This document shows positions 6,706 through 56,785 of a stretch of DNA of 64,000 bases, piece by piece. Numbering within the stretch: position 1 is the stretch's first letter; every line of letters starts with the position of its first letter. This DNA is from Dehalococcoidia bacterium. GTDB taxonomy: Bacteria > Chloroflexota > Dehalococcoidia > Bin125. Location: the NCBI GenBank assembly GCA_963555985.3, contig OY820591.1:1856001-1920000 (forward strand), in the 5' to 3' direction. The translations under genes and the position numbers were made by a program. Below the pieces are notes generated by a model. It had not been told where the DNA came from. It did no database searches and saw only the letters and a list, made by a program, of their open reading frames with translations.

Positions 6706-6776
6706 TTGCGGTGGTGTTCGGGTTTGTTCAGGGAAGTTTTTTCTTTGGGCGGACTCGGGAAAACGCGGGCAGGGCT

Positions 6777-36256: not shown

Positions 36257-36320
36257 GGGCCTACGCACGCAGATCGAGGATGTCTCCCAAGAAGCTCTGG
36301 CCAATCGCTTGATCTCCGCC

Positions 36321-36600
36321 TCGCAACGCAGTACATTCGTACTGTATGCGATCAGCCGCGATGCGAGGCCCGTCATGTCCGCCGTTCTGCCTCTCCAGCC
36401 TGTAAACCCGCCCTATCCAAACGGCTCCCCACACCTTCCAACACGCGCACAAAATCTGCGTCAGGCTGACAAAACCAGCGCCGAACTGACCAAAACTAAC
36501 CATCCTGAACACACGATCTCCCATAAAACACTGCAATTCCACACGCTGCTCAGCGCTAGAAAGAGAATTTCCCGCAAACTATCCACCCGCCCGCCCGCAC
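36321..36600 (+). repeat. Dispersed ~300-bp promoter + 10-nt-period element, copy A (divergent)
   Basis: Palindrome CAGTAC-ATTC-GTACTG at 36329-36344, 10-nt-phased CTGAC/CTAAC/TGAAC units at ~36456-36510, and tail GAGAATTTCCCGCAAAC. Confidence 0.5.
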
Positions 36601-36666: not shown

Positions 36667-38049
36667 ATGCCCAAGAGTGATCTCCCCTTCGGCAGCGACT
36701 TCTCCCCCACCGACAAAGACCTTGGCCATCTACTCGAGCTCGCTGACGAGTGCGGGTCGGATTGGCGCGAGTTCGAGCGCCGCGTCCGTGCCGCATACAC
36801 GGAGGACAAGAACACATCCGACAGCAACAAGAACAAGCTGTCTAACAACACCAAGCTCGGAATGCGCTCGTACGGCCTGATCGGGCCGGATGATGCAACC
36901 CTCACCGAGCTCGGCGAGCGGCTACTCGCTCTGCGAGACAAGCCTGAGCAGATGTACGAGGAGTTCGCACGGCACATCCTCGTCAATCGCAAGGGGTTGA
37001 CGCTGACTCAGTGCATCCGCGACATGACCACGGCAGGTGAAGAAGTGACCGGCGTCACGATTCGGCGCGAGCTAGAGGAGCGCGGCGTGTACGTCCCGGT
37101 GAACTCGCGCAACCACTTCACCATGCGCCTCTGGCTCGCAAAAGCAGGTGTGTTCAGCAAGGACTTCCGCCTGAACGAATCACGCCTCGAAGAGATTCTC
37201 GGCACGACGATCGAGAGTGTCGACGCACTCGCGCAACTGACACCCGAACAACGCGCTTACCTGCGCACCATCGCCAGCATCGACACGGACGCGCCTCAAT
37301 GGTCGAACGACCTCGCCAAACTCGCCGCGGCCGCGCACGGAGTCGACTTCAGGGACCAGGGCATCCCCAAGCTCGTCCTCTATCCGCTCAAAGAGGCTGG
37401 CTTCATCACTCTCGAACGCGGAACGAAGCAACCCGGCAGAGGCGCAAAGCCGTTCCTCGTGAAGCCCACTGACCGCGTGCGGACCGAGCTGGTGGAACCG
37501 CTGCTCAAACAGATCGACGAGCAAGTGCTGCCCGATCTCCGTCCCTGGCTGCGGCGACCGCTCTCGGAAATTCGAGCCGACATCAACTCGGACGATCGGC
37601 ACGTGCGCGGTCTGGCGCTGGAGGCGCTGGCTTTCAAGCTGATGCGCTTGGTCAACCTCGATTACGTGACAACCCGATTGCGAGGCTCTCAAACGGGCGG
37701 GGCAGAAGTCGACTTGATCTTCGAGAGCACCCGGCTGCTGTTCAATCGCTGGCAGGTGCAGTGCAAGAACACCAGGCGTGTATCCCTTGACGATGTGGCC
37801 AAAGAGGTCGGCTTGACGCACATGCTCAAGAGCAACGCCATCGTCATGCTCACGACTGGCGATGTTGGACGCGAAGCGCGCCGCTACGCGGCGGAAGTCA
37901 TGCGAACGTCCAATCTCTGCATAATGATGGTGGACGGCGCTGATCTCCGCAGCATCGAGGCCAATCCGGCAAGCTTGGTAGATATTCTGACCCGAGAGGC
38001 CAGGAACGCCATGCAGGTGAAGACGCTCCAGCTGGACGGCGGCAACTGA
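36667..38049 (+). CDS. Restriction endonuclease with C-terminal Mrr-like catalytic domain
   Basis: RGLALEAL...GGAEVDL...WQVQCKN (PD-QxK); its stop overlaps the MTase start (TGATG). Confidence 0.8.
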   Translation: MPKSDLPFGSDFSPTDKDLGHLLELADECGSDWREFERRVRAAYTEDKNTSDSNKNKLSNNTKLGMRSYGLIGPDDATLTELGERLLALRDKPEQMYEEFARHILVNRKGLTLTQCIRDMTTAGEEVTGVTIRRELEERGVYVPVNSRNHFTMRLWLAKAGVFSKDFRLNESRLEEILGTTIESVDALAQLTPEQRAYLRTIASIDTDAPQWSNDLAKLAAAAHGVDFRDQGIPKLVLYPLKEAGFITLERGTKQPGRGAKPFLVKPTDRVRTELVEPLLKQIDEQVLPDLRPWLRRPLSEIRADINSDDRHVRGLALEALAFKLMRLVNLDYVTTRLRGSQTGGAEVDLIFESTRLLFNRWQVQCKNTRRVSLDDVAKEVGLTHMLKSNAIVMLTTGDVGREARRYAAEVMRTSNLCIMMVDGADLRSIEANPASLVDILTREARNAMQVKTLQLDGGN

Positions 38050-39185
38050 TGACAGACCTGCACGCGCCCGTTCTGGAGACCGCGCTTGGCCGCATCACCT
38101 GCGCCGACTCGCGCGACATGCTCGCGGACTACCCCGACGGCTCGGTCGATTGCATCCTCACCAGTCCGCCCTTCGGACTGGTGCGCAAGAAGGCATACGG
38201 CAACGTCGACGCCGCCGACTACCTCGATTGGTTCGCCTCCTTCGCATCGGAGTTTCACCGCGTCTTGACTGAAAACGGCAGCCTGGTGATCGACATCGGC
38301 GGTGCCTGGAATCGCGGAATGCCGACCCGCAGCCTCTACCACTTCAAGTTGGTCGTCATGCTCTGCGAACAGTTCGGGTTTCATCTTGCGCAAGAGTTCT
38401 ACTGGTGGAATCCGTCCAAGCTGCCCAGCCCGGCGGAGTGGGTGACGGTGCGCCGCATTCGCGTCAAAGACGCAGTGAACACGGTCTGGTGGCTATCGAA
38501 AACACCCTGGCCCAAGGCGAGCAACCGCCGCGTCCTCCAGCCCTATAGCGACAGTATGCAAGACCTCTTGGCCAACGGATATCGCCCGATGCGGCGACCG
38601 TCCGGCCACGACATCAGCGACAAGTTCGCCGCCGACAACGGGGCCGCGATCCCACCGAACCTGATCGCGATCCCAAACACCGAGAGCAATGGGAGCTACC
38701 AGCGCTACTGCAAAGAGCGCGGCTTCAGACCGCATCCTGCCAGGTTCCCGGCAAAATTGCCCGAGTACTTCGTGCGCATGTTGACAAACCCCGGCGACCT
38801 AGTTGTCGATCCGTTCGCCGGCAGCTGCGTCACCGGAGAGGTCTGCGAACGGTTGGGACGCCGTTGGCATTGCATCGAGCTCGATCCCGAGTATTGCGAG
38901 GGCGCAAAGGGGCGATTCTTGGGACAATCCGACCTTCCCAACGTTGAGAGAAAAGCTGGCAAGTCAGGCGCGACCCGCTACCAGATCCCCGCGCCGGGAC
39001 TCCTCTGGGCCGAACTCGACGAAGAGCCGCTTCATCCCGACGGTGGAATCAACCGGCCCAGGCGGAAGCAGGACGCCTCGGCCTCTCCACCAAATGGCGT
39101 CTCAGAACGAGCTGGCGACTTGGAGTATGTCGAAGGCGCCTATGCCCCGCGAATGCTCAAAGAGCCTCAACCACAGGAGGAATAG
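38049..39185 (+). CDS. Beta-class DNA methyltransferase, PvuII/SfiI-like (probable N4-cytosine)
   Basis: TSPPF, WWNPSKLPSPAEWV..RRIRVKD, HPARFP and DPFAGS. Confidence 0.9.
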   Translation: MTDLHAPVLETALGRITCADSRDMLADYPDGSVDCILTSPPFGLVRKKAYGNVDAADYLDWFASFASEFHRVLTENGSLVIDIGGAWNRGMPTRSLYHFKLVVMLCEQFGFHLAQEFYWWNPSKLPSPAEWVTVRRIRVKDAVNTVWWLSKTPWPKASNRRVLQPYSDSMQDLLANGYRPMRRPSGHDISDKFAADNGAAIPPNLIAIPNTESNGSYQRYCKERGFRPHPARFPAKLPEYFVRMLTNPGDLVVDPFAGSCVTGEVCERLGRRWHCIELDPEYCEGAKGRFLGQSDLPNVERKAGKSGATRYQIPAPGLLWAELDEEPLHPDGGINRPRRKQDASASPPNGVSERAGDLEYVEGAYAPRMLKEPQPQEE

Positions 39186-39237
39186 TCGACTCGCCTCAAC
39201 CAAACTGTGACCCCCGCAACATTCCGCCAATCCCGCT

Positions 39238-39490
39238 CCTGAAACAGAACACATATACGTATATGATTGGCTGTAGCCAACGCCCCGTCCGCAATCAACA
39301 GAACCTGCCATGATCGCCAGAAACCGCTCGAACTACCCAACACATACCCGAAAGAACCCAAACAAGCCCGAACACTCCCGAACGGAATCGAACAGAATCG
39401 AACGCATCCGAACACAATCGGACACCCTGGCTGCGAATTCCTCGCCCACAACAGCAAATTCGCCGCCGTCGCCCGGAAATTCCCCAACGC
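39238..39490 (+). repeat. Dispersed promoter + 10-nt-period element, copy B
   Basis: CTGAAA-17-TATGAT, then CCTGCCATGA, then eight 10-nt units centred on CGAAC (39347-39426), then ATTCGC..TCGCCC.GAAATTCCCC; homologous to 50845-51110 on the minus strand. Confidence 0.75.
39239..39267 (+). promoter_or_regulatory. sigma70-like promoter with SOS-box-like motif in the spacer
   Basis: -35 CTGAAA, 17-nt spacer containing GAAC-ACAT-ATAC, -10 TATGAT. Confidence 0.5.
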
Positions 39491-39557: not shown

Positions 39558-40565
39558 ATGCACTACCGAATCCCTGAAACTGCGGAGTGGCCCTCTGAAT
39601 TCGCCGACCGCATCGTCGCCGGGGATGCGGCGGCGCGCCTGCGCGACCTCCCCGACAACTGCATCGCTCTGGCGGTCACCAGCCCGCCCTACTGGGATGT
39701 GGTCGACTACGGCGTCCACGGACAGCTAGGACAGGCCAGTTACGAGCGCTACCTGGAGCAGCTGCTCGCGGTCTGGCGCGAAACGGCGCGGGTGCTCATC
39801 CCGAACGGGAAGCTCGCCGTCGTCACCCCGATCATGCCCATCCCCAAAAGCCAAATCAGCGACCAGCACACCCGCCATCTCAAGAACATCGCCGCAGATA
39901 TCGAGGCGAGCATCCTCCGCGAGATCGCCGACTTGCACCGCTACAGCCTCTTCGTCTGGAAGAAGCAGACCACCACCAAGATGTTCGGCAGCTACCCCTA
40001 TCCGCCGAACATCTACGAGGACAACACGATCGAGTTCATCAACGTCTACGTCAAAGCCGGCGCCCCGCCCGCAATCCCCAAAGCGGCGAAGGAACGCAGC
40101 AAGCTCTCACAGGAAGAGTGGCTCAATCTCTCCATGCAGATCTGGCCCATCTACCCGCAAGATGTCCAGCGAGCCGGCGGGCATCCAGCCCCATTTCCGG
40201 TTGTACTGCCGCAACGACTGATCGCGATGTACACATTCGCCGCCGACCCCGCCCACAGCTTCGCCGGCGACATCGTGCTCGACATGTTCAACGGCTCAGG
40301 CGCGACCACACTGGCCGCGAAAACCATGCAGCGCCGCTGGCTCGGCATCGATCTGCATCCGGGCTACTGCGAATACGCCGAGAACCGCTTGCGCTCCGAG
40401 TACGTAAACCCCCAAGGACTCATTCTCGACGGACATCGAGTCCTGGCCGCGACGGGCGGGACAACGCCGTCTCAGTTTCCGAAACCCGAACCCGGCTCGC
40501 GTCAATCCGAACTGTTCGGCAGCAAGAGCGCAAGCTCGAAGTCCAACATCGCAGCCGCAGACTGA
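39558..40565 (+). CDS. Beta-class DNA methyltransferase (SPPY, probable N4-cytosine)
   Basis: VTSPPYW, HPAPFP and VLDMFNGSGAT. Confidence 0.9.
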   Translation: MHYRIPETAEWPSEFADRIVAGDAAARLRDLPDNCIALAVTSPPYWDVVDYGVHGQLGQASYERYLEQLLAVWRETARVLIPNGKLAVVTPIMPIPKSQISDQHTRHLKNIAADIEASILREIADLHRYSLFVWKKQTTTKMFGSYPYPPNIYEDNTIEFINVYVKAGAPPAIPKAAKERSKLSQEEWLNLSMQIWPIYPQDVQRAGGHPAPFPVVLPQRLIAMYTFAADPAHSFAGDIVLDMFNGSGATTLAAKTMQRRWLGIDLHPGYCEYAENRLRSEYVNPQGLILDGHRVLAATGGTTPSQFPKPEPGSRQSELFGSKSASSKSNIAAAD

Positions 40566-45422: not shown

Positions 45423-47531
45423 CTAGATTGTAGCTAGCTCTTGCAGCACCTCCGACAGCGCCTCTTCCCACTCCGCTTCCGCTAGTCGTCGTGTCGGTGT
45501 GTACCTCAGCTGCGTACGACCTACGGATACTTGCGAGGGCATCGAGAGCCCTCGCTGTCGCGGTGTGAAGCTGAGACCGGGCGCGAGCCGAATGACCACC
45601 GCATCCGACTCGTATTGGATGCTCGCTGCCCCAATTCGCGCTGCTTGGGTCTTCAGTTTGACTGCGCCGAGCAGGTTCGACGCCGGCAGCGGCAGGGCGC
45701 CGAACCGATCTTCGAGCTCCTGCTCGATTGCTTCGACCATCTCGGCTGTTTCGGCCGCCGCTAGCCGCTGATAGACGGTCATGCGCAGACCGAGATCCTC
45801 GACGTAGGTCGTGGGCAGATAGCGCGGGAGGGGGAGGTCGATGCTGACCTGCGGACCCTGGCGAGGTTGGGGCGGCGGTTTGCGCTCGCGTTTGGCTTTG
45901 GCTTGCTCGACTGCTTCCGCCAGCAGCTGGGTGAAGAGCGTGAATCCGACCGCTCCGATGTGGCCCGACTGTTGCTGACCGAGTAGATTGCCCGCGCCGC
46001 GAATCTCCAGGTCTCGAAGTGCGAGCTGAAAGCCCGCGCCGAGTTCTGAGGCGTCCAGGATCGCGGCGAGCCGGCGTTGGGCGGTTTCGCTGAGCGAGCG
46101 ATAGGGCGCGGTCATCAGATAGGCGTAGGCGCGAACACTGGCGCGGCCGACCCTCCCACGCAGTTGATAGAGCTGGGCCAGACCGAGCCGTTCGGCGCGG
46201 TCGATGATGATCGTGTTGACGCGGGGAATATCGAGTCCCGACTCAATAATCGTTGAGCAAACCAGTACATCCGCTTCGCCGTGCGTGAACTTGTGCATGG
46301 TTCGGCGCAGAATTGAAGGCGACATCTGGCCGTGAGCGATCAGGAAACTCGCCTCTGGGACGAGTTCGCGCAGCCGACGCGTCTCCAGCTCGATCGTGCG
46401 TACCTCGTTGTAGAGAAAGTACGTCTGCCCTCCGCGATCGCGTTCGCGCAGGATTGCCTCGCGGATCACGCTCTCGTCGCGTTCCATTACCTGCGTGTGG
46501 ATGGGCAAGCGCTCTTCGGGCGGCGTCGCGATCGTGGACATGTCGCGGATACCGGTCACGGCCTGGTGGAGCGAGCGCGGGATCGGGGTGGCGGTGAGCG
46601 TGAGCACATCAACCTCGCGCCGGAGGCGCTTGAGCGCCTCTTTGTGGACGACGCCGAAGCGTTGCTCCTCGTCGATGATCACGAGCCCGAGGTCTCTAAA
46701 CGCGACATCTTTCTGAATCAGGCGATGAGTGCCAATCACCAGATCGATCGCGCCGGATTTGAGGCCGGCCAGCACTTCTCGCTCTTCAGCCGGCGTGCAC
46801 TGCCGTGAGAGCAAGGCGACGCGGACATTCATCGCGGCCAGACGCTCGCTGAACGTGTCGAAATGCTGTTGGGTGAGCACAGTCGTGGGGACGAGCATGG
46901 CCACCTGGTGACCCGACATGATCGCCTTAAACGCAGCCCGCACCGCAATCTCGGTCTTGCCGTAGCCGACATCTCCGACGATCAGCCGATCCATCGGCTT
47001 GGCGGCCTCCTGATCGGCGCGAACTTCTTCAATCGCTTGATGCTGGTCGGGCGTCTCGATGTAGGGGAACGAAGCTTCGAGTTCGATCTGCCAGGGGCTG
47101 TCGGGATCGATCTCGATCCCGGGCATGGTCTCGCGGGCTGCGTGCAATTCGAGCAAGTCTTCTGCGATCTCAATGACCGCGCCGCGAACGCGCTGTTTGG
47201 CGCGAGTCCACTGCTGGGTACCAAGCCGGGTGAGGGTTGGCGGCTGGTCGGACGGACCTACATAGGGCTGGACGCGGTGCAGCTGATCGCTGGGCACGAG
47301 CAGACGGTCGCCCTGGGCGTAGCGAAGATCGAGATACTCGCCGGTTCGTCCCGCGATCTCTTCAAGCACGACGCCATGGAATTTGGCGATGCCGGAGTCG
47401 ACGTGGACGACGAAGTCGCCGGGTTGCAGGGTTTCGAGCAGGTGTGGATCGGCAGTGCGGACAGCGCGGCGCGATGTCGCGCGGCGTTGGCGCTGGCGAG
47501 TGAAGCCGAAGATTTCGGTGTCGGTGATCAC
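45423..47531 (-). CDS. mfd: Transcription-repair coupling factor, C-terminal part (RID, translocase, TRCF domains)
   Basis: GDFVVHVDSGI, ETPDQ, GDVGYGKTE, DEEQRFG, TATPIPR, QLRGRVGR and DLEIRGAGNLLG. Confidence 0.92.
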   Translation of the reverse strand: MITDTEIFGFTRQRQRRATSRRAVRTADPHLLETLQPGDFVVHVDSGIAKFHGVVLEEIAGRTGEYLDLRYAQGDRLLVPSDQLHRVQPYVGPSDQPPTLTRLGTQQWTRAKQRVRGAVIEIAEDLLELHAARETMPGIEIDPDSPWQIELEASFPYIETPDQHQAIEEVRADQEAAKPMDRLIVGDVGYGKTEIAVRAAFKAIMSGHQVAMLVPTTVLTQQHFDTFSERLAAMNVRVALLSRQCTPAEEREVLAGLKSGAIDLVIGTHRLIQKDVAFRDLGLVIIDEEQRFGVVHKEALKRLRREVDVLTLTATPIPRSLHQAVTGIRDMSTIATPPEERLPIHTQVMERDESVIREAILRERDRGGQTYFLYNEVRTIELETRRLRELVPEASFLIAHGQMSPSILRRTMHKFTHGEADVLVCSTIIESGLDIPRVNTIIIDRAERLGLAQLYQLRGRVGRASVRAYAYLMTAPYRSLSETAQRRLAAILDASELGAGFQLALRDLEIRGAGNLLGQQQSGHIGAVGFTLFTQLLAEAVEQAKAKRERKPPPQPRQGPQVSIDLPLPRYLPTTYVEDLGLRMTVYQRLAAAETAEMVEAIEQELEDRFGALPLPASNLLGAVKLKTQAARIGAASIQYESDAVVIRLAPGLSFTPRQRGLSMPSQVSVGRTQLRYTPTRRLAEAEWEEALSEVLQELATI

Positions 47532-48922
47532 GGTGAGACGGGAGCGGCCTGTGCGGGATCGATCAGCCGCCAGCCCTCGCTCAGGGGGGCGCGGGCGACT
47601 GCGACCGCCGTCCCGTTTGGGGCGTCTCCGGCGGAGAGAGCCTGGAAGGGGATGCCGTAGTCGCCCATCAACTCCGAGAGCCGCGCAGCCTGAAGCGAAA
47701 TCAGCGCGCGCGGGCCGTCGTCCTGGCGGCGCAAGCGCTCGAAGAGGTCGGCGAGTTTGCCGGCGAGACGCTCGACCGGCTGGAAGGGCAGCCGCTGCGT
47801 GCCTGAGGCAAGACGTGACAGCTGACGCTGAGGCAAGGTGAGCGCTCTGAGCCGCTGCTCGAGTTCGGCGGCGGTGAGCCAGGGATGGGGCAGACCGCGA
47901 GGGATTCGAGCCGCGTGCTCCAGTTCGGCGCGGGCGTGCTCTGCGCGGGCGTCGCGCTCCTCCGCTCGCGCGAGCGCTTCATGGAGTTCGTCGATCAGGA
48001 CGAGCGTGTTTGGCGGGAGCTGCTCGAACAGCGTCGCGGGAGCGAGGAACGGCGTCCAGAAGTCGGGACGTGAGGGCGCCTCTCCGACTCTCAAGCACTC
48101 GAGATCCAGATTGAGTGCCATGGCCTCAGCGCTGAGTTCCGGCTCACTCGAGTCTGGCCTCCCAGGAGCGGCGCCGATGTCCTCGAACAGCGAGTTCAGG
48201 CGCGCCTCGGCGGCGCTCGGATTCCACTCGCGGGCGGGTCGGAGTTCGATTGCGTCAAGGGAACCGGTCGACCGCTGTGTGGCGGGGTCGAAACGGCGCA
48301 GCGAGTCAACCTCGTCGCCGAAGAGTTCGATCCGTGCTGGCTGATCATCGACGATGGGCCAAAGATCGATGATGCCTCCGCGCACGGCGAAGGTCGCGGG
48401 TGTGACGACCAGCCGCTCGCGCTGGTAACCGGCTGCATCGAGCGCGCGCAGCAGCGCGTCCAGCCGGAGTTGGCCGCCGCGCTCGATTCGGATCGGAACG
48501 GATTCCGCGCCCAGCGTGCGCTGCGTCACGGCGTCGGCGTCGGTGATCAGGATCGGATCAGTAGAGCGAAGCGCGGCGAGTGCGGCGAGACGGGCTTCGA
48601 TCACGTCCGCCGGAGGCGGTTGGCGGTCGTAGGGCACGAGGTCGCGGGAAGGGAACTGGCGCAGGCGCGTCCGTTGTTCGTGATCGAGCCAGACGGGCAG
48701 CTGCTCGAGCAGATCGTCGGCTGCGGCCGGGGTGGGAGTGAGTACGACGACCGGACCGGAGTGCTCCGCAGCGAGCGCGGCGATCAGGGCGGGCTTGGCG
48801 GCGTCCGGCACTCCGAGCGTCTCTTGATCGCGGTAATCGGCAAGCGCGCTGCGCACGATCGGCTGTAGCCCGGCGAGTAGGCCGGAGGTGTCGTGGTGGC
48901 CGCTGAGATTCGCCGCGGTCAA
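47528..48922 (-). CDS. mfd: Transcription-repair coupling factor, N-terminal UvrB-homology part (frameshifted relative to the C-terminal part)
   Basis: FAVRGGIIDLWP..RIELFGDEVDSLRRFDPATQRS. Confidence 0.88.
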   Translation of the reverse strand: MTAANLSGHHDTSGLLAGLQPIVRSALADYRDQETLGVPDAAKPALIAALAAEHSGPVVVLTPTPAAADDLLEQLPVWLDHEQRTRLRQFPSRDLVPYDRQPPPADVIEARLAALAALRSTDPILITDADAVTQRTLGAESVPIRIERGGQLRLDALLRALDAAGYQRERLVVTPATFAVRGGIIDLWPIVDDQPARIELFGDEVDSLRRFDPATQRSTGSLDAIELRPAREWNPSAAEARLNSLFEDIGAAPGRPDSSEPELSAEAMALNLDLECLRVGEAPSRPDFWTPFLAPATLFEQLPPNTLVLIDELHEALARAEERDARAEHARAELEHAARIPRGLPHPWLTAAELEQRLRALTLPQRQLSRLASGTQRLPFQPVERLAGKLADLFERLRRQDDGPRALISLQAARLSELMGDYGIPFQALSAGDAPNGTAVAVARAPLSEGWRLIDPAQAAPVSP

Positions 48923-50844: not shown

Positions 50845-51110
50845 GTTCGGGGAATTTCTCGGGCGAAATGTGCGAATGCGCCGCCGGTACCGGTGAAAAG
50901 CACCGTCGGTAGTCCAGATTTGTCCAGATTTGGCTCGATTCGTCCAGATTTTGCGATGTTCTGAGCGGAAATGAGCGGGTGAATCCGAGTTTGTCCAGGC
51001 GTATCCGGACTCGGGGAGCGGAAGGTGCGGGTGGTCATGGCAGGCTCCGCGTAGAGGTGGGGGAGCGTTGGGCACGAGCTATCGTATACGCACTTGCGTT
51101 CTGTGTCAGG
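50845..51110 (-). repeat. Dispersed promoter + 10-nt-period element, copy C
   Basis: Minus strand: CTGACA-17-TACGAT with GAAC-GCAA-GTGC in the spacer, CCTGCCATGA, AATCTGGACN-type units (50911-50950), and ATTCGC..TCGCCCGAGAAATTCCCC. Confidence 0.75.
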
Positions 51111-51149
51111 TTGTGAGTCGAGGGCGGTGTCTAGTAGTTGACAGGTCTG

Positions 51150-56750: not shown

Positions 56751-56785
56751 GTTCGGGCTCGTTCGGATTTGTTCGGCTCTGTTCG
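56751..56785 (-). repeat. Short 10-nt-period CGAAC array (four units)
   Basis: Plus strand GTTCGGGCTC GTTCGGATTT GTTCGGCTCT GTTCG. Confidence 0.65.

Follow-up and report, generated by a model that had tools for sequence, protein, structure and literature searches.

The question raised by positions 39238-39490 (+) of the window (that is, of the whole 64,000-nt stretch analysed, to which all plain coordinates below refer) is what a segment made of a promoter, an ATG and a 10-nt repeat array, and apparently recurring on the other strand at 50845-51110 (-), is for, and whether it works as a gene, as an RNA or as DNA. The earlier note had taken the two segments (copies B and C) for collinear homologs; their local alignment score of 87, against 27.1 ± 4.8 (maximum 48) in 500 dinucleotide shuffles, bears this out, and all the motifs claimed for both were found in place. 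Copy B, on the + strand throughout, starts with a TGT-N10-ACA dyad (39206..39221), centred about -60 from the predicted start site and possibly an activator site; for class I activators, the position is -61. There follow (39239..39267) a weak -35 element, CTGAAA (39239-39244), a 17-nt spacer and a -10 element, TATGAT (39262-39267), the spacer containing a LexA-type box, GAAC-ACAT-ATAC (39247..39258), with two mismatches to GAAC-N4-GTTC. The leader and ATG (39296..39312, the ATG at 39310) resemble the start of HTH and terS-like genes and are followed by no conserved ORF, the next feature being a phased array of 10-nt direct repeats of the CGAAC type (39329..39423; AA/AT/TT period 10.6), and then a tail (39434..39484) with AATT at 39436, 39457 and 39478, 21 nt or two helical turns apart, homologous to the post-array stretch in HTH genes. 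The in-phase units start at 39329, 39349, 39359, 39369, 39379, 39389, 39399, 39409 and 39419; six are exact CGAAC and three are variants, so that the "eight CGAAC-centred units" first counted were about right. Copy C (50849..51143, -), flanked by a rhodanese gene and pth, is a full family member with repeat units of the CTGGAC type, different from those of B, and has its own TGT-N10-ACA dyad at 51143-51128 (-); given this dyad upstream in both copies, the element begins about 35 nt earlier than first described.

The position of copy B between two methyltransferase genes looks incidental. To its left lie a Mrr_cat restriction endonuclease and an N6/N4 methyltransferase (REase and MTase1; 36667..39185, +), a widespread cassette situated between B and a further copy, A (36290..36600, +), which belongs to a sister subfamily with a TTGA -35, a GTAC-N4-GTAC box (36331-36342), an ATG, a degenerate array and a different tail, and which stands left of the REase gene. 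To its right lies a second N6/N4 methyltransferase (39558..40565, +), elsewhere not found with the REase-MTase1 cassette: among 80 homologous metagenome loci, REase adjoins MTase1 in 36, while the element and the second methyltransferase occur in none. The suggestion that B drives this second gene does not hold as a general purpose of the element, since only 23 of 38 copies have a same-strand gene ahead (p = 0.26) and the second methyltransferase is foreign to the widespread cassette; read-through from B may nonetheless reach it. Neither B nor C is an assembly artefact, because short-read contigs from four public runs of one study span both (B in three runs, C in two), with no joint skipping either copy among the matches listed. 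In the same window, mfd (45423-48922) is split at 47553, a place at which an additional base is present in the contigs of each of the four runs; this split is therefore likely an assembly error.

B and C belong to a cassette family that is real, of old standing and under selection, and of which the sources searched contain no description. A profile built from B and C gave 58 matches in the studied 3.33-Mb genome (G000), 40 of them full length, in agreement with the dispersed family that had been proposed; 38 full copies lie on the main contig (C1), and two near-duplicates on small contigs. The common order is TGT-N10-ACA, GAAC-N4-GTNC within the 17-nt spacer between -35 and -10, the -10 element, leader, ATG, the array of 10-nt direct repeats and three AATT 21 nt apart. 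Across the 38 copies, motif columns are 97-100% conserved versus about 70% in spacers (TGT/ACA 98%, box columns 97%, key -10 bases 100%, ATG 97% with GTG variants), and mean identity over the family is only 64%. As to array type, 33 copies (C included) are of the CTGGAC type, three of the TGAAAC type and two (B and C1:2968050) of the CGAAC type. Counting arrays of the three types with or without the remainder of the cassette, about 100 are found at 94 sites of the main contig, versus five matches on the reversed sequence; full cassettes are present also in the relatives G006, G013 and G018.

Several observations on individual arrays may be added. One orthologous gap (L139 versus G000:C1:2087935) is occupied in G013 by a CTGGAC cassette, and in G000 by a CGAAC cassette whose promoter belongs to another subfamily. 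Bare CGAAC arrays lacking the promoter occupy short intra-operon gaps (window positions 6730 and 56751-56785 (-); C1:77167, 900489, 1172113, 2428555 and 2960617); where examined they lie on the sense strand, and two are kept at orthologous gaps of other genera. A short CRISPR-like repeat array directly adjoins a CGAAC array at G000:C1:1757950-1758250. Finally, a distinct family of 13 near-identical MITE copies carries a CTGGAC array (C1:129927, 348537, 479077 and 10 more), 11 of them with both terminal inverted repeats and mostly with CTAG flanks.

In occurring as dozens of short intergenic copies that do not code and mostly stand behind genes, the family recalls MITEs and REP/BIME elements, and a selfish or relic non-autonomous mobile element, whose motifs would be kept for copying with no gain to the host, has to be considered. 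It would account for the gain and loss of arrays at orthologous gaps (13 of 17 arrays of relatives have no array at the matching G000 site), for the placement of 32 of 38 copies co-directionally behind a gene (p = 2e-5), for the presence of an array in the 13-copy MITE, and for the C-rich, G-poor strand bias common to the cassette and to the HTH, terS-like and terL genes (fourfold-site C:G about 73-75:14-16 versus 48:37 genome-wide). The cassette differs from such elements, however, in having neither hairpin nor, in the family-1 alignment, terminal inverted repeats or target-site duplications (these belong to the separate 13-copy family, and an origin as a MITE or IS remnant was rejected), and in consisting of old, diverged copies with a promoter and a phased array: only 1 of 703 pairs exceeds 90% identity, the copies form a star-like tree whose terminal branches have a median length of 0.3, and the motif columns are near-invariant. 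Moreover, four of the 17 arrays persist across genera at orthologous gaps holding a G000 array, no Y1 transposase was found in G000, and REP-like hairpins, whose association was likewise rejected, are not enriched beside copies (13/38 versus 173/493 gaps). A purely selfish element is thus an unlikely account of the family.

If the cassette is selected, the question becomes at which level. That the ATG might open a frameshift-tolerant micro-ORF, as had been suggested, is contradicted by the ORFs starting from it, which run from 23 to more than 500 codons, in frames distributed 19/12/7, with codon-position conservation of 0.717/0.727/0.717; in the cassette copies, there is no conserved frame, stop, length or codon pattern such as a small protein family would have. 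The micro-peptide, which has on its side the conservation of the ATG and its replacement by GTG, is largely refuted and extremely improbable. The structured small RNA, another of the options initially offered, fares no better: the fold of B has z = -0.29 versus shuffles, the alignment yields only two tiny hairpins, both from the palindromic unit, and no Rfam family corresponds to it, the window containing only a tRNA at gathering score and five element loci a single chance-level snoRNA match outside the element. An unstructured SOS-induced RNA, whose spaced repeats would bind a protein (as a sponge or a Rho-loading tract) and whose ATG would recruit ribosomes, agrees better with the conserved promoter, leader and ATG, with the sense-strand orientation of the bare intra-operon arrays, and with the C-rich, G-poor composition; yet it is very unlikely, since neither fold nor alignment reveals structure and since the spacing of the motifs fits B-DNA, also upstream of the predicted start site.

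Indeed, the AA/AT/TT period of 10-11 exceeds 95% of shuffles in 35 of 38 copies, with a recurrence every 10.2-10.6 nt and a phasing of 10.4 bp. Distances between motifs vary by whole turns: the ATG lies 109-112 nt from the array in 29 of 38 copies and is off by about 10 or 20 nt in seven of the other nine, and of 36 copies, 32 have 38-41 nt between TGT and box, the remaining four having 29, 29, 30 and 49 nt. Such whole-turn indels, together with the 10.4-bp phasing and the 21-nt spacing of the AATT tail, point to a face-of-helix constraint, which we infer to be imposed by a protein; of the functions initially listed for the element, it is the phased protein-binding array that these sequence patterns favour.

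The promoter in front of the array carries what appears to be an SOS signal. GAAC-N4-GTTC is found upstream of recA as a perfect match in 13 of 23 genomes of the class, a count that rises to 19 of 23 when one mismatch is allowed (versus 9 of 23 control stretches); its use as host motif rests on these class recA boxes, a published Chloroflexota LexA motif not having been retrieved from the literature. G000 itself has lexA, and its own recA box reads GTAC-N4-GTTC. Among the cassettes, 31 of 38 have a box with at most one mismatch to GAAC-N4-GTTC, B being among the weaker ones, and since the box overlaps the promoter, the LexA-type reading first given to it appears sound. A loose version of the box precedes 16 of 19 HTH genes examined and 23 of 29 terS-like genes in G000, versus 102 of 2861 genes overall, and the cassette promoter matrix has 18 matches outside the family, 14 of which precede terS-like ORFs. 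It is likely, with good confidence, that LexA represses the cassette promoter.

The origin of the cassette is suggested by the HTH genes just mentioned. The 3' part of about 20 paralogs in G000 contains an array, and so does that of 5-20 paralogs per genome in seven relatives; array and tail together occupy this place in HTH genes of G000, G006, G013 and G018, with the AATT tail after the array in several, and one HTH gene of G013 begins ATGACCGCC and bears a CTGGAC array, like the main cassette subfamily. Because the same array and tail occur inside HTH genes with similar promoters, the cassette corresponds to an HTH gene minus its coding core, and very likely derives from a small-terminase-like HTH gene through loss of that core.

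Whether the HTH protein recognises the array may be judged from how the two are paired among 41 genomes. The CTGGAC pattern occurs in four of them (93, 68, 19 and 2 matches), and three of these four also possess the HTH subtype whose genes contain that array; the TGAAAC pattern has 30 matches in G000, the sole genome with that HTH subtype, and one match elsewhere; the YGAAC pattern occurs in six genomes, all among the eight with multi-copy HTH genes. Against such a pairing, G006 has a CTGGAC array and no matching HTH was found there. Both G014 and G022 have seven HTH genes, with dispersed arrays numbering only four and two by a loose pattern and none by a strict one. Arg at the first position of the recognition helix is coupled to TGGAC arrays in 9 of 9 rows, as against 0 of 33 others, a count that comprises only two independent pairs (p = 0.5) and is based on 43 of 76 rows labelled by eye; the other 33 rows, in which no array was clear and three of which have Arg, were left out. 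Descent alone could explain the match between array and HTH type; on the other hand, the persistence of the motifs on long branches argues for use of the array rather than mere descent. On these grounds, the array probably binds its cognate HTH protein.

What such binding would achieve is less clear, and a transcriptional role deserves attention: the array would be a site for an Ltr-like activator, for autorepression or a roadblock, or a decoy sink setting the threshold of the SOS response or of the particle programme. As far as the available part of PMC3753634 goes, RinA, ArpU and LtrC bind direct repeats that immediately follow the genes encoding them, each being specific for its own repeats. 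The HTH arrays resemble these systems in that the gene encoding the HTH protein has, at its 3' end, direct repeats specific to that protein, and in their tie to packaging genes. In addition, the HTH matches sigma-70 region 4 and other regulator folds, promoter and ATG are retained across the cassettes, and in phage contig L307 a 10-nt array of the AATCTGGAC type separates a RinA-like gene from an HNH/terS-like pair (gene identities assigned by eye). The differences are, however, considerable: the Ltr proteins bind DNA via their C-terminal region while the HTHs considered here are N-terminal, the repeats lie inside the gene, gene-less copies are dispersed, and neither a late promoter nor terS or any common gene follows the family-1 or HTH arrays. 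Furthermore, the sequence beyond the array shows no -10-like element at a constant distance, the gene faced by the copy is on the opposite strand in 15 of 38 cases, and the neighbours are unrelated genes. Some transcriptional role is therefore conceivable but rather improbable.

The preferred reading, in which the arrays are docking sites for DNA packaging, depends in part on what the HTH protein is. Its predicted fold, in which three helices form the HTH and a long helical hairpin comes next, is compatible with TerS without being diagnostic; in a fold search many unrelated HTH proteins came first, G20C TerS having rank 23 (Z 6.3). In a comparison with the terL-adjacent terS of six relatives, hhalign gave 93% over 72 columns with those genes kept outside the profile (89% over 52 columns in an earlier alignment), the likeness residing mostly in the HTH and the next helix and the C-terminal part alone being not significant. 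The HTH-less terS that adjoins TerL in G000 shows no likeness to the HTH family, and the terS genes of the relatives' intact clusters carry no array. Close relatives of the HTH were not found in viral contigs or named phages; a broad HTH profile search was left out of consideration, being dominated by multi-HTH proteins and devoid of gene context. That the HTH protein is a TerS is only slightly more likely than not. Among the viral contigs, L309 and L310 carry AT-rich genes that encode C2H2 zinc-finger-like proteins and have 10-nt TGAAAC arrays at and before their start, an apparent parallel, and in L306:1490-1550 a CTGGAC-type array, possibly representing excisionase sites, is flanked by a tRNA-like end and an integrase gene.

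The genome of G000 also holds genes for a particle. There are five TerL copies and about 29 small terS-like genes, a capsid gene (C1:1976328-1977221; Atlas 0.98 and weak Pfam capsid matches), an endolysin gene and a portal-like gene (C1:1960832-1962778). The latter has no PHROG, Pfam or PDB match and was identified by reading the region and by an Atlas score of 0.97 to clusters containing 13-30% P22/SU10 portal families; the PF04860 portal is absent from G000. Of 40 relatives, 10 have the capsid as a single copy with 67-75% identity, the portal-like gene is present in 11 relatives, and a LexA-type box stands upstream of the capsid in 15 of 19 loci. All eight genomes with multi-copy HTH genes have the capsid and portal-like genes, a co-occurrence confounded by kinship. 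Conserved single-copy head and packaging genes with no replication or integration genes beside them (neighbours read by eye from translations) are what is expected of a GTA. The scaffold-capsid-lysis operon (C1:1975852-1979501) and the portal-like gene (L188, L189) are present as single copies in three to four genera. A different conserved cluster, terS-terL-portal-protease-capsid-tail, occurs in another six relatives, for three of which it was read from end to end. In this second GTA-like cluster (L174, L175 and L179, in G009, G008 and G005), HTH-terS, terL, an HK97-type portal, protease, capsid and tail genes lie at a common locus, terL and portal are single-copy in six genomes of three genera, and host or defence genes are inserted after terL.

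With these components, a mechanism can be proposed in which copy B would be one of about 40 chromosomal cassettes acting as DNA, each offering a phased docking array to its cognate HTH protein. DNA damage would lift LexA from the promoters of the HTH, terS/terL and capsid genes; each array would then be wrapped by HTH oligomers along a single face of the helix, and would serve TerL as a site for cutting and for the filling of procapsids. In other words, binding of the HTH at an array may recruit TerL and start packaging of the neighbouring host DNA, making the array a pac-like site of a domesticated, SOS-controlled, GTA-like system of virus-like particles; this is quite possible, though we stop short of calling it probable, and the binding step is firmer than the packaging step.

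The comparison with known pac sites is instructive. According to the accessible part of PMC10028697, the pac site of P1 has seven hexamer repeats inside pacA, and, from the portion of PMC4737164 available, that of SPP1, situated where terS starts, has direct repeats and bent DNA. Likewise, the array and AATT tail, with their 10.4-bp period, place repeats and bend-prone DNA inside the gene of a protein with an N-terminal HTH and a link to terminase. Different are the number of candidate arrays (about 100 over a bacterial chromosome), their mostly gene-less state, their several types and the LexA-type promoter in front; moreover, the SF6 TerS DNA-binding domain is reported, in the same portion of PMC4737164, to bind its repeats non-specifically, which counts against the docking analogy. 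SaPIs provide a second parallel: in what is available of PMC12597102 (for the first point, text and reference list), operon I is under LexA control, and terS is SOS-induced and can package from pseudo-pac sites. The likeness lies in SOS-type control of small-terminase-like genes outside a prophage; the cassette loci, in contrast, have no island, integrase or replication module, many copies are solitary, and conserved genes for capsid, a portal-like protein and TerL are the host's own. With RcGTA and the Caulobacter GTA, the particle genes of G000 share single-copy, vertically conserved head, terminase and lysis genes, no phage replication genes nearby and a DNA-damage link; they differ in the P22/SU10-like portal, the tail genes not found, the amplified terS/terL and the dedicated repeat arrays. 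Known GTAs, as far as the consulted part of PMC9632790 extends, package random DNA. A literature search for the cassette or for a Dehalococcoidia or Chloroflexota GTA, in which most subscription journals were outside coverage, found no description, nor was a giant-virus analogue (MIGE) found.

The pac reading is open to several doubts: particle genes occur without arrays in three relatives (G021, G024 and G011 have capsid, portal-like and terL genes without multi-copy HTH genes or arrays, so that arrays are not required); in G000, terL has no HTH gene next to it; a search of that genome with tail proteins of the relatives revealed no tail genes; and the spacing of the arrays along the main contig is random, no more even than chance (p = 0.31). 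The promoter and ATG, the best-conserved parts of the cassette, also count against it, since a pac site should not need them.

Overall, the family appears from its sequence features to be a variant of phage-derived HTH/repeat docking systems, new in the sources searched. A bolder and more doubtful proposal is that this Dehalococcoidia lineage has a domesticated, LexA-controlled and possibly tail-less GTA, in which several TerS-like HTHs with their own repeat codes would address about 100 pac cassettes, one every 30-35 kb, so that the cell would select the parts of its chromosome packaged after DNA damage. Known pac sites belong to phages or their satellites and known GTAs package at random; a chromosome with many maintained, subtype-specific arrays sharing the promoter of terminase genes would, if this were true, represent site-directed packaging of host DNA. 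Even if the packaging role is wrong, the family constitutes a natural series of HTH/repeat pairs for the study of specificity codes, and it draws attention to two sets of GTA-like genes of this bacterial family that had gone unreported.
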